DNA from: Escherichia coli
GTDB taxonomy: Bacteria > Pseudomonadota > Gammaproteobacteria > Enterobacterales > Enterobacteriaceae
Reading direction: 5' to 3' (one strand)
Assembly: GCF_044324875.1 (NCBI RefSeq)
Contig: NZ_CP172186.1
DNA length: 64,000 nt
Positions 18,001 through 30,000 of the stretch are shown here, in pieces; within the stretch, counting starts at the first letter, position 1, and every line of letters starts with the position of its first letter. The position numbers were made by a program.

Positions 18001-21000
18001 ACTGAAAAACCGCGGTCTGAACGATATCCTCATCGCCTGTGTGGATGGCCTGAAAGGCTTCCCGGATGCCATCAACACAGTATATCCGAAGGCCCGCATC
18101 CAGTTATGCATCGTGCATATGGTGCGCAACAGCCTGCGCTTCGTGTCATGGAAGGACTACAAGGCCGTCACTCGCGACCTGAAAGCGATTTATCAGGCTC
18201 CCACGGAAGAGGCAGGTCAGCAGGCACTGGAAGCGTTCGCTGCGGCCTGGGACAGTCGCTATCCTCAGATAAGCCGAAGCTGGCAGGCTAACTGGCCGAA
18301 TCTTGCCACGTTCTTCGCTTATCCAACGGACATCCGCAAAGTGATCTATACGACGAATGCCATCGAGTCGCTAAACAGCGTGATCCGCCATGCGATCAAA
18401 AAGCGTAAAGTGTTCCCGACAGACGACTCGGTGAAAAAAGTGGTGTGGCTGGCAATCCAGTCTGCGTCCCAGAAATGGACGATGCCGTTGAAGGACTGGC
18501 GAATGGCAATGAGCCGCTTTATTATCGAGTTCGGTGACCGCCTGGACGGTCACTTCTGAGAAAAGGCATTTACACAGAATCCTAAACAGGCTCCCGTCAC
18601 GATACCCGGTATCAATCAATGAAGTCCATTTAATTGATGACGTCGAAGTTATGGCATGTGTGACGATGCTGAGAAAGCGCCCTTTTTCAGGTGTTTTTTT
18701 AATCTTTTTGGGGTTTAAATTCCTATTGATGAACAACGCTTTCATTTACGGGACAATGACCGGCAACGCTCCCGGTACACCGGGAGCGTTAGTGTTCAGA
18801 ACCAGGTTTCCATCTGAACGCCAAAATTCCATTCCCCGCCTGCATTAAACCCGCTACCGCCGAAAGCATCATCACTGGCGTAGTTATCCAGTCTGCTGCT
18901 CCAGTCCATCCAGGTGGCGAACAGACGCAGTTCCGGACGGCTGAAGAAGTCCCCCAGACCTCCTGCCTTGAGGGTGGGCGCAAACGTCAGCTTGTAAAAA
19001 CTGCCGTTAACAGCATTGCGGTCCTTATACCCTTCAGGTTTCAGATCCATGTACTGGTAAGTGCCCTCAAACGCCAGCGCAAAATTCTGCGTCACCTCCT
19101 TAATCAAGCGGGTGTTCAGGGTCACCCATTCATAACTGTCTCCACGGGCATAGCGATCCTTACTGCCCTGCGCCATGACTGACGGGGCGATATGCCAGCC
19201 GTTTCCGAGCGGGGTGGTACCATATGCAGCAAGACGCCAAGTATCCGCATCACTGCGTAGTGCACCGTCAGAGCCAATCCCCTTCACTTCCGCCCCCAGA
19301 CCATGCCCGTACAGAAGTGCTATTTTCGCCGTTCCCTCACGTAATCCCCAGAAACTGTCATTATGAAGTCCGGCCAACACATGCACACCGTGGCTGGCGG
19401 CACTGGCATGGATAAGGTCGCCATTATTGTCCCTGCGGTCATCATTATCCTTTGCCCGCATACCGCTGACCATAAGCTGGAACGGCCCGGCAAAGTGGTT
19501 CATGGTAAGGATATAGTTCTGGACGTTGTTATCGATATCCTCCATCTCCCCGAAATTGCGTCCATACAGGGAGAAGTTACTGCGCAGAGTGTCGTTCCAT
19601 TTCACGTCATAGATACCGCCCCCGGTTCCGCCGAGGAAAACCACGTCCGAGTCCAGCCAGTGGATATCAAAGTTGTCACGATCGAAACGTTTACCCGCCC
19701 ATACCGTACTGTGCTTCAGCGGCCCGGTGAAGTCCGGCAGATTTCCCAGTTCAGCCACCACCTGGCGGACGTTAAGGTCACTGGAGTTCGCCGACCAGTC
19801 GTTATAGGTTTTCTGACCATCCGCCAGCATCACCTTAAACCGGGTGGTGGCCCCGCTTTCGAGCGTCTTTTTGTGCTCAAACACGGTTTCCACATAAGTG
19901 TCTCCCTCATTCCCGAGGCGCCCGACCGAGCCACCGGTCTCTCCGGCAGGCGTCAGATACGGACCACTTTTGCTGCCGGATGCGGCATCGTTCATCAGCA
20001 GACCCGAGCGGGCATAGCCGTGAAACTCAAAACCACTATTGTCCGCTTTCTTTTCCGGTGGTACGGATACGGTCTGTGGCACAACAGGTTGTGTCGCCGG
20101 GGTGGCGGCCAGTTGCTGCACCTGCTGTTCTGTAGCGGTTGCCCGTGATTCAGCCTTCTGAGCACGGGTTTCAGCATCCTGAAGCCGTTTTTCCAGGGCC
20201 GCCAGCCGGGCTTCAATACTGTCGGTATTCCCCGCCGCAAAGACCGGGGAACAGGCCAGCAGAATGGCACACGAGAGAAGGTGTTTTTTCATTTTTATAT
20301 CCTTGTAAAAATAGAGGTATTGTTGACAGCTAAATCGATTTAGTCACCCGCAACAAAAATGACGTGCACAACGGTTACGGGCAGGAAACGGTCAGGGGTG
20401 TTTCAGTAAATCCTGGCGACGGGGTAACGCTGTCATGGCACCTTTTGCTGTCGTGGCAAGCGCACCACAGCGCTGGGCCTGTTCGATGACGGATGCGAGT
20501 GCCTGCTCACCGGAGGGCATCCCCTCTGCCGCCAGCGCTGCCAGCAGACCTGCCACGAAGGCGTCACCGGCACCGGTCGTGTCCACACTCACCACCGGTG
20601 TTGCCGGGAAGTACAGGTTTTTTCCCTGCCAGCGAGCCATCACGCCATCCTTTCCTTGGGTTACCAGCAGCAGTGCCAGGGGATAATGTGATGCCAGAAC
20701 ATCGGTTCCCTTCCGGACATCCTGTTCACCGCTGATAAAGAACAGTTCCTCTTCCGATACCTTTGCCACATCCGCCAGCATGAGCGCCCGGTGCAGACAC
20801 TCACGCAGTTGCGATGTGCTCTGCCACAGGTCAGTCCGGATGTTGGGGTCAAAGCTGACCCTGCCGCCAGCCTGCCGGATGTTCTCCATGGCCTGAAACG
20901 TGGCGCTGCGGCAGGGCTCTGCACTCAGGGCATTGGAGCAGGTATGCAGCCATTCACCGGCACGAAAGGGCGGTAAATCATCAGGGGTAAGGAAAAGGTC

Positions 21001-27000: not shown

Positions 27001-30000
27001 TCGTCAGGGCATGACGCATCTTCAGCACACCGGACGATGTCAGCACCAGTTCACTGACCATGCGCAGACCCGCCACTGCATCCTCACTGGTCAGGGTGAG
27101 TGATTCTCCGGCCTGTACCACGCTGATGGTACGGAACACAGGGGACGCATCCAGCCCGTTGCGGTGTCCCTCCAGCCCCGGCGAGCCAAAAAGTCCCGCG
27201 CCGTTTTCGGCCATCAGCGTCAGTGGGGTGTCGGTATCCAGACGACCATTCGCAACCGGCCTTTCCAGGCTGATACAGTCATCCGGTGAAAAGTGTTTCA
27301 GGGTGGATCCCCACCAGACAATCTCTGCATACGGGTGGGTTTTAATAATCAGGTCTGAGTGGGGACTGGTCAGCCTGCGGTACATCGGTTCCATAAGACA
27401 TCTCCGTTTTCGGGTATGCCTTACTGTTGATCCGAATCGTTTCGGATAGCAACCGAAACGATTCGGATTTGTGAGCGGGATTAAAAATCAGGCGGAGGGA
27501 GCAAGCGTTGTCTTGCCAGGATGAAATTCCGGCTGCCAGAGTACTTGTAGCATTTCAGGTGAAACATTCGTGACCAGCTGGCGTATCATGTCGGCAACCT
27601 GACGACCGACGCGATGTCGTGTTGACTGAAGAACTGCAGCCACATCCTGTTCAATAATACTGTCCTGCGGCAGACCATCATAAACCACAAGAGAGACGGC
27701 ATCCTCTCCGGACAGATGACCGGATAACTGCAGCGACATGGCCGCGCCATCACCGATCAGGTCACTGTCGGTAATAATGGCCGTCGGGGGAAGCGGAAGT
27801 GACATTAACTCAGTCACTGCCTGGAAACCTGAGCGTCGGGTGGGAGAGACCCGGCGTAGCCAGGTCTCAGGCAGACCATGTTCACTCAGGGCATCGCGCC
27901 ATCCCTGACGTCGTGCAGTGACATAGGTACGGGAGTTGTCCTCACTCAGCAGGGCAATTCGCTGATGGCCCAGGGCAATCAGGTGCTGTGTGGCCTGCCA
28001 GGTTCCTGCATGGTTATCAAAGTCAAACCAGGCACAGGGAAGACCGGACGGCACCTGACCGAGTGCCAGAAACGGAATACCGGCCTCCTGCAGGTGTGTA
28101 AGACGCGGGTCATTATCCAGCGTGTGCGCCACGATAAGGGCATCAACCCGGCGGCTTTCGACCAGACGCATATAGCTGTGGCTGTCAGCCCGTTCATCAT
28201 CGGCTATCAGCAGTAAGTCAATATCATGGCGGGCCAGTTCCCGGCTGATACAACTGACCATATCCACAAACACACTACTGCTGAACAGTACAGCATGTTC
28301 AGGGAAGACCAGGCCGACCGCATCGGTTTTACCGGTTTTGAGACGTCTTGCCAGGGTATTCGGGCGATAACCACGACGCCGAGCTTCCGCTTCTACACGT
28401 GCACGGGTCGAAGCGGAAACGTCCGAAAATCCGCCAAGCGCCCGGCTGACTGTGGTGACAGAGATCCCGAGTTCGGCGGCGATAGCCTTGAGTGACATAT
28501 TTTCTCCTGCGGATAACCGAACAGCCCTGTCCCTGATGCGGGTGATCCGGGCAACAAACCTGACAGAGACGCCTGCATAAGTGGTCGCGCTGTACCAGTA
28601 TGAGCCTCCATCATCCTGATTTGTGTATTAACTTTCAATACCGGAGGACGATTTGATTACCGGTTGTTAGCAGGAGTGCGAATATTAGACCGACGGTGGA
28701 GATCTAAGACTCAGTGAGCATAGCGATACACTATATTACTGTAATTAAGCCAGTAAACTTCCTGTTCACTGGCTTAAACGCTAATGATGTATGCAGTTGA
28801 ACAAGCTTTTAAACTAATGATTAATTGATATATGAGCTGGCCCCCTGAAACACCAGACAGTAGATGTATCTTAAAATAAGAGGTAGGCTTGGATATATGT
28901 CTAACACTAGTTCTAATTTTGAGATGGCTGGCGTTTTGTTAGGAAAAGAGGTGCGTAAACGTAAAACACCTCAGGAAAAAATCGCAATTATTCAACAGAC
29001 TATGGAGCCAGGCATGACGGTGTCTCACGTGGCGCGTTTGCATGGAATTCAGCCCAGCCTGTTGTTTAAGTGGAAAAAACAATACCAGGAAGGAAGTCTC
29101 ACTGCTGTGGCTGCGGGTGAAGACGTTGTTCCTGCTTCTGAACTGGCCGCTGCGATAAAGCAGATTAATCAGCTTCAGCGTTTACTGGGCAAGAAAACAA
29201 TGGAAGTTGAGCTCCTCAAAGAAGCGGTGGAGTACGCGCAATCGCGAAAATGGATAGCGCATGTGCCCTTGTTACCTTCGGACAAGGAATAGCCCCGGTA
29301 AGCCGTGTTCTGGGCGTGTCGCGTGCGCAGTTAACATTACGGATGAAGGCATCTGATAACAAGACAGATAAACGGCGTCAGAGACGCGATGAGGCTGCGG
29401 ATGCAGAAGTCTTATCGCGCATCCTGGATATCATTGGCGATATGCCAACATATGGGTATCGCCGTGTCTGGGCGATACCCAGACGGCAGTCCCGAAATGA
29501 AGGCCTGCCGTTCGTGAATGCAAAACGCGTTTACCGGATAATGAGCGAAAACAGCCTGTTGTTGTTGCATGACAAACCATCACGACCTCAGCGGGCACAT
29601 AAAGGCCGTGTAGAGGTTAATAAAAGCGACCAGCGTTGGTGTTCCAATGGCTTTGAGTTCGGTTGCGATGATGGCGAAAAAGTCCGGGTTACGTTCGCCC
29701 TGGACTGTTGCGATCGTGAAGCTATCGACTGGGCAGCCAGTACGGGAGGTTACGATAAATCGACAGTGCAGGATGTGATGTTAGGCGCGATAGAAAAACG
29801 CTTTGGCGATAAAGTGCCGGAACAGTCGATCCAGTGGCTGACAGATAACGATTCAGCGTACAGAGCGCATGAAACACGGCAGTTCGCCAGAGAGCTGAAT
29901 CTGGAGCCCTGTACGACGGCAGTCAGCAGTCCTCAGAGTAATGGAATGGCAGAACGGTTCGTGAAAACGATGAAGGAAGACTACATCGCGTTCATGCCGA

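Follow-up and report, generated by a model that had tools for sequence, protein, structure and literature searches.

A raf-scr mosaic cassette with a raf-linked EIIA-Glc paralogue on an Escherichia coli plasmid

The window analysed here, a stretch of 64,000 nucleotides of Escherichia coli DNA (NCBI RefSeq assembly GCF_044324875.1, contig NZ_CP172186.1), is plasmid sequence with an IncFII repA gene at 1-873. On its minus strand, at 18796-28498, it carries a tight run of open reading frames (ORFs) in the order rafR, rafA, rafB, rafD, a paralogue of the glucose-specific enzyme IIA (EIIA-Glc) of the phosphotransferase system (PTS), a DUF2913 pseudogene, a fructokinase gene and a porin gene. A preliminary description of this DNA had placed the same functional genes in the same order, which the ORF listing, hidden Markov models (HMMs) and pairwise comparisons bear out, and had interpreted them as a raffinose (raf) operon of the pRSD2 type, with the EIIA and fructokinase genes inserted between rafD and rafY. 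The picture that emerges from our analysis is a different one, namely that of a mosaic between a raf operon and one end of a sucrose (scr) regulon, whose EIIA-Glc paralogue belongs to a clade linked to raf genes.

Genes in the window were called by ORF listing, and their identities were assigned by NCBIfam scans and by pairwise protein comparison with a classical raf plasmid (NZ_CP024831, locus L002). Further references were two complete scr regulons on plasmids (loci L029 and L030) and raf loci from Klebsiella michiganensis and metagenome contigs (L019-L021) and from Citrobacter braakii (L022-L024). Positions 18726-28832 align with an IncFII plasmid of Salmonella Saintpaul as a single gap-free block of 99.2% identity; as the flanks around this shared block differ, it delimits a cassette of 10,107 bp. 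The cassette has a GC content of 56.6%, uniform over its raf and scr parts, against 50.1% in the remaining window, and this shared value points to assembly in a host of higher GC content before arrival in E. coli. Its features are the following, in the order of transcription.

18726..28832, minus strand: raf-scr mosaic cassette, 10,107 bp, edges set by the match to the Salmonella Saintpaul plasmid
27488..28498, minus strand: rafR, LacI-family repressor, 336 residues; LacI HMM matches, 79% amino acid identity to classical RafR
27432..27466, minus strand: raf promoter region with twin RafR operators, conserved in an alignment of four raf lineages
27453-27466, minus strand: RafR operator O1, CCGAATCGTTTCGG, palindrome kept in all four aligned lineages
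27432-27445, minus strand: RafR operator O2, CCGAAACGATTCGG, palindrome likewise kept in all four
25268..27394, minus strand: rafA, GH36 alpha-galactosidase, 708 residues; 87% amino acid identity to classical RafA
23936..25213, minus strand: rafB, LacY-family raffinose/H+ symporter, 425 residues; TIGR00882, 679 bits; 88% identity to classical RafB
22509..23939, minus strand: rafD, cytoplasmic GH32 invertase, 476 residues; TIGR01322, 446 bits (cut-off 356); 84% identity to classical RafD
22479..22499, minus strand: G+C-rich hairpin, weak T tail, between rafD and EIIA (63-bp spacer); probably an attenuator or partial terminator
21930..22445, minus strand: raf-linked EIIA-Glc paralogue (annotated crr), 171 residues; NF006962, 234.8 bits (cut-off 212)
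21348..21924, minus strand: DUF2913 pseudogene, split by a single frameshift into two called ORFs (21721-21924, 21348-21659); from three-frame translation
20392..21318, minus strand: scrK-type PfkB fructokinase, 308 residues; NF006957, 477 bits (cut-off 450); 65-69% identity to ScrK of scr regulons
20330..20343, minus strand: orphan ScrR-type operator palindrome, CTAAATCGATTTAG, within the 99-bp scrK-scrY spacer
18796..20292, minus strand: ScrY-type sucrose porin with an N-terminal coiled-coil extension, 498 residues; 741 bits to PDB 1A0S
18764..18791, minus strand: strong hairpin directly after scrY, -25.2 kcal/mol, z = -4.1

At these scores, the family assignments reflect strong homology and not chance. 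In the raf part, both RafR with its twin operators and the order RafA-RafB-RafD fit a pRSD2-type operon. The rafR-rafA spacer is alignable in four raf lineages and has an invariant TCAC upstream; a TTGCTA hexamer between O1 and O2 is presumably the -35 box, judging by inspection and by the classical raf promoter. The resemblance to pRSD2 noted in the preliminary description thus extends to gene order and to proteins of 79-88% identity; it does not extend to RafY, which is missing, and nucleotide identity to the classical locus is only about 80%. When raf loci are arranged by protein identity, the window and the classical locus are sisters (79-88%), and the Citrobacter/Klebsiella type is their outgroup (66-78%). 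By its sequence, the raf half of the cassette is a lineage distinct from classical pRSD2.

The porin at the distal end had been taken for rafY, but it is a ScrY-type protein of the LamB family. Its match to the solved ScrY structure 1A0S covers the whole barrel, and it is 76-78% identical to ScrY of the two complete scr regulons. Classical RafY (464 residues), by contrast, aligns with it only in the N-terminal coiled coil (33% identity over 73 residues), which rules out this identification. RafY-type porins of related raf loci carry Pfam Porin_8, and porin fragments in an error-laden copy of the window's own locus (L026) carry Pfam LamB; no RafY glycoporin (Porin_8) is present downstream of the raf genes in the cassette. 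The fructokinase, which standard annotation names aminoimidazole riboside kinase (and the EIIA paralogue simply crr), precedes the porin gene in the same way as in the complete scr regulons, which run scrK-scrY-scrA-scrB-scrR. These have two near-identical operator palindromes, CTAAATCGGTTTAG and CTAAACCGGTTTAG, in the scrK-scrY spacer, of which the cassette retains one at the same place. Likewise, the hairpin after scrY resembles one in the scrY-scrA spacer of L030, and homology to the scr regulons stops directly past it. In tblastn searches of the whole 64-kb window, scrA, scrB and scrR were not found: ScrA had no match, ScrB matched only RafD (37%) and ScrR only RafR (25%). As judged from these sequence features, the fructokinase and porin genes derive from a PTS sucrose regulon, of which they form the left, scrK-scrY end; they are joined to the raf part via a decayed mobile-element gene, and the fructokinase probably did not enter as an insertion of its own. 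The operator is orphaned because scrR is missing from the window; since the operator in the porin gene's own spacer has no repressor there, porin expression is probably constitutive, or else under some host LacI-family protein.

The mobile-element gene at the joint is what had been described as a 600-bp degenerate stretch, and degenerate it is; more exactly, it is a DUF2913 gene broken by a single frameshift, with the same split into two ORFs in every annotated copy inspected. The repaired product (191 residues) has at most 52% identity to DUF2913 proteins and equals phrog_15786, a PHROG of unknown function. Erwinia plasmids carry intact homologues close to relaxases, and others occur on a colicin-type Salmonella plasmid, near resolvases and, in a single Raoultella case, next to transport and amidase genes that are unrelated; none of those examined adjoins genes of sugar catabolism, and PADLOC gave no meaningful match. 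Given these mobile contexts and the PHROG of unknown function, we rejected a sugar-related partnership between DUF2913 and EIIA and read the gene as dead mobile-element cargo that probably marks the joint between raf and scr.

The EIIA paralogue satisfies the criteria of the EIIA-Glc family (PF00358/NF006962), passing the curated cut-off and carrying both active-site histidines, His75 and His90, which are invariant in the alignment. It is about 59-60%, or at the widest about 57-63%, identical to the housekeeping protein, Crr, and falls outside the Crr orthologue group into a separate clade, located after rafD rather than in ptsH-ptsI-crr. In a single-sequence search of 5.8 billion proteins, it retrieved an E. 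coli cluster of at least 96% identity, all other matches being at most 66% identical. Its relatives in K. michiganensis and C. braakii, both of 170 residues, are 61% and 63% identical to it. A profile of the three paralogues, run against the same 5.8 billion proteins, scored 298-338 bits on only five protein clusters, which belong to the three lineages, compared with at most 265 bits for housekeeping Crr; and in a neighbour-joining tree, the paralogues split from 26 gammaproteobacterial Crr proteins in 200 of 200 bootstraps. The single-sequence search yielded no donor, and neither did a scan of genome contigs with exact 8-mer patterns of the paralogue, whose matches were all remote homologues of Crr, from Sodalis, Borrelia and others.

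In every context examined, the EIIA gene lies 63-65 bp downstream of a 476-residue GH32 gene of the rafD type within a raf locus. The Citrobacter locus has the order rafR-rafA-rafB-rafY-rafD-EIIA, and the Klebsiella locus is a rearranged version, in which the rafD-EIIA pair has been relocated upstream of rafR. Neither has a PfkB, LamB-type porin, PTS permease or scr gene within 9 kb. The remark in the preliminary description that EIIA travels with a LacY-type permease is thereby strengthened, in that two other raf lineages, which lack scr, also have a member of this clade after rafD. Since EIIA follows rafD on both sides of the raf split, parsimony makes the linkage ancestral and implies that the classical locus lost the gene; no EIIA remnant is detectable in L002. 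The EIIA gene is thus probably an older partner of rafD and not an insertion. The Citrobacter and Klebsiella loci share 96-98% identity in RafA and RafB, compared with 83% in RafD, 75% in EIIA and 73% in RafY, a pattern that is consistent with a history of its own for the rafD-EIIA pair and suggests that it recombines as a unit.

At pN 0.24-0.25, the EIIA gene has diverged at nonsynonymous sites to nearly the same extent as rafR and rafD (about 0.21), and the ratio of nonsynonymous to synonymous divergence (dN/dS) between its Citrobacter and Klebsiella copies is about 0.13, similar to rafR, an approximate value with synonymous sites near saturation. On this basis, the gene is seen to be under long-term purifying selection. 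The protein has kept His75, His90, Asp38, the hydrophobic patch (F41, I45, V46, F71, F88 and V96), G47, A76 and S78. In Crr, the latter three are needed for target binding, which their mutation abolishes, and D38 and D94 contact Arg17 of HPr. The amphipathic N-terminus is also kept, which suggests a membrane partner. All three lineages share a one-residue insertion after P54 and the derived changes E43G, K53R/L, E80R/K, D94N/S, E97D and K104R. To judge by these features, the paralogue resembles a functional EIIA whose charged rim has been altered. Among the variants in the database, one short form has a four-residue deletion (KIVG) beside the active-site patch, and another, with a product of 115 residues, also matches the start of DUF2913.

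The genes between rafB and scrY are closely packed, with gaps of -4 bp for rafB-rafD (the end of rafB overlaps the start of rafD by 4 bp), 63 bp for rafD-EIIA, 5 bp for EIIA-DUF2913, 29 bp for DUF2913-scrK and 99 bp for scrK-scrY. A consensus scan found no site resembling a sigma-70-type promoter between rafD and scrK. The rafD-EIIA spacer (67 nucleotides as folded) forms its hairpin at -20 kcal/mol with z = -2.5; the Citrobacter and Klebsiella spacers form hairpins too, with folds that are not significant against shuffled sequences (z = -0.5 and -1.1). An Rfam scan of the window returned only IS3-type ALIL frameshift pseudoknots and nothing within the cassette. We infer that transcripts from the RafR-controlled promoter, attenuated at the rafD-EIIA hairpin, read through into the EIIA gene and scrK.

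Taken together, the gene identities, the mosaic structure, the membership of the EIIA clade and the selection acting on it are direct observations, from which a coherent explanation can be built. The 10.1-kb cassette, bracketed by insertion sequences (IS), would be a horizontally acquired unit for the use of raffinose-family sugars, assembled from two known systems, raf and scrK-scrY, with an EIIA that acts as a co-induced, PTS-linked brake on RafB. We put the probability of this explanation as a whole at roughly 0.6. Its catabolic part is well supported by the gene assignments: the ScrY-type porin would admit raffinose and sucrose through the outer membrane, RafB would bring raffinose in with protons, RafA would split it into galactose and sucrose, RafD would split the sucrose into glucose and fructose, and the fructokinase would trap the fructose by phosphorylation, so that no export and re-import of sugar would be needed. 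That the fructokinase completes the use of fructose, as previously proposed, is plausible in light of its NF006957 match and scrK-type character.

For the EIIA paralogue, a role as brake on RafB is the most likely one. The RafR-controlled promoter would drive rafA, rafB and rafD and then, by read-through of the hairpin, EIIA and scrK. Host HPr would phosphorylate the paralogue, whose unphosphorylated form would most likely bind RafB. In this way, raffinose uptake would be subject to a dose-matched brake, induced together with the carrier, and the host pool of EIIA-Glc would not be drained. RafB itself is reportedly regulated by EIIA-Glc, going by the title of a 1994 study by Titgemeyer, which is listed as reference 7 in PMC4996493. 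Inducer exclusion depends on the ratio of EIIA-Glc to its many targets. RafB (425 residues) has no IIA domain, EIIA being the product (171 residues) of a separate gene. A precedent for dedicated control exists in LacS, a non-PTS galactoside carrier whose own IIA-Glc-like module is phosphorylated by HPr and tunes transport (PMC10703360). By extension, the raf-linked EIIAs might form a new functional class of operon-encoded, carrier-dedicated PTS sensors, an unfused Gram-negative counterpart of the IIA of LacS, but this we regard as a doubtful, if possible, generalization. If it were true, a mobile non-PTS sugar operon would bring its own link to the host PTS and could impose or cancel glucose control of RafB independently of the host EIIA-Glc pool, and the altered charged rim would give these proteins a partner specificity unlike that of Crr.

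Several points weigh against a brake on RafB. Most transcripts could end at the hairpin behind rafD. Since the classical raf operon functions with no EIIA gene, the paralogue is dispensable for growth on raffinose as such. The E. coli and Salmonella copies of EIIA show 3-4 nonsynonymous against 0-3 synonymous changes, and there are shorter or partial variants in the database (P0002, P0003, P0060 and P0212), which together hint at relaxed constraint in current hosts. Finally, several acidic rim residues differ from those of Crr (E43G, E80R/K and D94N/S), and phosphorylation by HPr is not assured, as D94, which in Crr contacts Arg17 of HPr, is among them. Some of these points would be explained if EIIA were functionless cargo, slowly decaying like DUF2913, and only rafRABD, scrK and scrY mattered. 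The nonsynonymous excess among near-identical copies, the shorter or partial variants, the fixed pseudogene next door and the classical locus without EIIA all agree with such a fate. Nevertheless, of the 245 E. coli genomes with the gene, 243 have a full-length match of at least 99% identity, the between-lineage dN/dS is about 0.13 (with synonymous sites near saturation), the catalytic residues are conserved across 25-39% protein divergence, and the adjacency of rafD and EIIA outlasts the rearrangement in K. michiganensis. We therefore consider idle cargo unlikely.

The altered rim, shared by all three lineages together with E97D and the insertion after P54, fits a changed specificity and could also indicate that the paralogue relieves glucose control instead of exerting it, be it by acting as a phosphate sink, by competing without inhibition for the EIIA-Glc site on RafB or by further activating adenylate cyclase. 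The CRP-dependent raf operon and RafB would then stay active while glucose is freed internally, as it is in raffinose breakdown by established pathway knowledge. However, the residues on which target binding depends in Crr (G47, A76 and S78) and the hydrophobic patch are unchanged, which makes relief improbable in our view. The position of the gene between rafD and the scrK-scrY fragment raises one more possibility, that it is scr-derived rather than raf-derived, a leftover phosphoryl donor for ScrA, a IIA-less PTS permease that needs EIIA-Glc and whose gene would once have followed scrY. Complete scr regulons indeed encode an EIIBC without a IIA domain, and the paralogue has kept its catalytic histidines. 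Yet the same clade sits behind rafD in C. braakii and K. michiganensis, with no scr gene or PTS permease in the 9 kb around; enterobacterial hosts already have crr; the DUF2913 pseudogene intervenes between the EIIA gene and scrK; and complete scr regulons have no EIIA gene upstream of scrK. We consider an origin as ScrA partner very unlikely. A truncated scrA downstream of scrY was considered as evidence for such a partnership and dropped: no scrA remnant is there, and the raf-only loci argue against it too. A dedicated brake on RafB thus remains the reading we favour.

The cassette is flanked by the following features.

17768..18560, plus strand: truncated IS1414 (IS256 family), left bracket of the cassette, carrying an intact astA
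18066-18182, plus strand: astA, EAST1 heat-stable enterotoxin, 38 residues, intact; lies in what remains of IS1414, some 600 bp away from the porin gene
28864..30131, plus strand: IS2-like element (IS3 family), right bracket of the cassette

An equivalent bracket, consisting of a truncated IS1414 and an IS2- or IS3-family element, surrounds the three chromosomal copies inspected, one of which lies in the selC island next to tia, while the other two share a different island. Because the truncated IS1414 accompanies the cassette in all three, astA probably travels with it. In the window, an IS3-family element with an ALIL frameshift pseudoknot (16456-17767) is inserted into IS1414, and an identical 194-nucleotide end piece of it recurs 14.6 kb away at 31060-31253 in direct orientation, so that these direct repeats place the cassette in a frame like that of a composite transposon. 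Two further ALIL-bearing IS copies lie at 34625-34741 and 47489-47575.

The whole cassette occurs on 9 plasmids in PLSDB and in 184 of 5,426 complete E. coli genomes, in near-identical form and mostly on the chromosome. The EIIA gene is found at an identity of at least 99% in 245 complete E. coli genomes (about 4.5%), in 245 chromosomal and 9 plasmid places; it had been called plasmid-borne, which is true of these 9 but not of the majority. Classical raf with rafY is present in 461 genomes. Two candidate relatives were discarded. L026, with a DUF2913 fragment of 75% identity, appeared to be an intermediate lineage but matches the window's locus at 98.9% identity, in an alignment with 72 gap openings, and is, as we read it, that locus in an error-ridden assembly; and the Salmonella "plasmid" H97, whose crr is 60% identical, is a piece of chromosome with ptsHI-crr that does not contain the paralogue.

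The plasmid itself is closely related to pLH50-c-A (NZ_CP100501.1, L034). Compared with it, a 24-kb block that holds the cassette and an fdrA-arcC cluster is inverted between IS3-family copies (window 6295-30168; L034 30280-6406), and the window therefore comes from a rearranged relative and not from pLH50-c-A itself. The fdrA-arcC cluster, at about 7400-15600 on the minus strand (L034 21009-29189), encodes a cysteine hydrolase, a DUF2877 protein, FdrA, a DUF1116 protein, the carbamate kinase ArcC, a protein related to allophanate hydrolase, a cytosine permease and a frameshifted LysR regulator, and is adjoined by a truncated nikB relaxase gene; by its content, it looks like a catabolic module for nitrogen compounds. 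Elsewhere in the window, a gene for an autotransporter outer-membrane protein of 1,165 residues (43564-47061, plus strand) lies between ISEc8 and IS3-family elements. In the chromosome of E. coli 13P477T (L032, 21080-28241), the cassette abuts a galactan-type cluster with a LacI regulator, a maltoporin, a stand-alone PTS EIIB, a beta-galactosidase, a GH53 enzyme and an ABC permease, which by its genes makes a second case of an orphan PTS component in a non-PTS sugar locus.

Raffinose-family sugars make up a large share of what is indigestible in soybean feed. Two recent studies connect E. coli from chickens with raf genes or with "rafY / sucrose porin" (PMC12987596, PMC12815263), and neither study tells the cassette variant from the classical raf operon. 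Recognizing the mosaic as a possible source of this signal would sharpen association studies as well as gene naming. We found no paper on this variant or on the raf-linked EIIA clade, in a search that covered subscription journals thinly, so that an older description may exist. The exact genes are, however, automatically annotated in about 190 public records, and the locus is in this sense already on file, though no published description of it was found. The raf-linked EIIA clade is the part most worth experiment, being a clean natural case in which to ask if PTS-mediated inducer exclusion is tuned by mobile sugar operons.

Among known systems, the cassette is most readily compared with its two constituents. 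With the pRSD2-type operon (rafR-rafA-rafB-rafD-rafY), it shares the order of the first four genes, proteins of 79-88% identity and the twin RafR operators, but it has a ScrY-type porin in place of RafY and, in addition, an EIIA paralogue, a DUF2913 pseudogene and a fructokinase, all three of which the classical locus lacks. With the scrKYABR regulon of the pUR400/Klebsiella type, it shares the scrK-scrY order, the ScrR-type operator before scrY and the hairpin after it, whereas scrA, scrB and scrR are missing, one operator stands in place of two, and scrK lies 29 bp behind another gene instead of having an upstream region of its own. The raf loci of C. braakii and K. michiganensis have in common with the cassette the rafD-EIIA pair, its hairpin-forming spacer of about 63 bp and the EIIA clade; they differ from it in protein sequence (61-78% identity), in having retained a porin of the RafY type (Porin_8) and in lacking a fructokinase, ScrY and DUF2913.

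The EIIA paralogue, in turn, resembles housekeeping Crr in its fold family (PF00358), histidines, hydrophobic patch and amphipathic N-terminus, and differs from it by its separate long branch, the one-residue insertion, the acidic rim losses and its place in a raf operon rather than with ptsHI. Its nearest functional analogy would be found in Gram-positive carriers of the LacS/RafP type with a fused IIA-Glc-like domain (PMC10703360). In LacS, however, the IIA is the C-terminal domain of a GPH-family carrier, whereas in the cassette it is a separate gene near that of a LacY-family carrier. Lastly, the non-PTS csc regulon for sucrose (cscB, cscK, cscA and cscR) sets an H+ symporter, an invertase and a fructokinase under a LacI-type repressor, and for the sucrose moiety the cassette would, by gene roles, work much like it.

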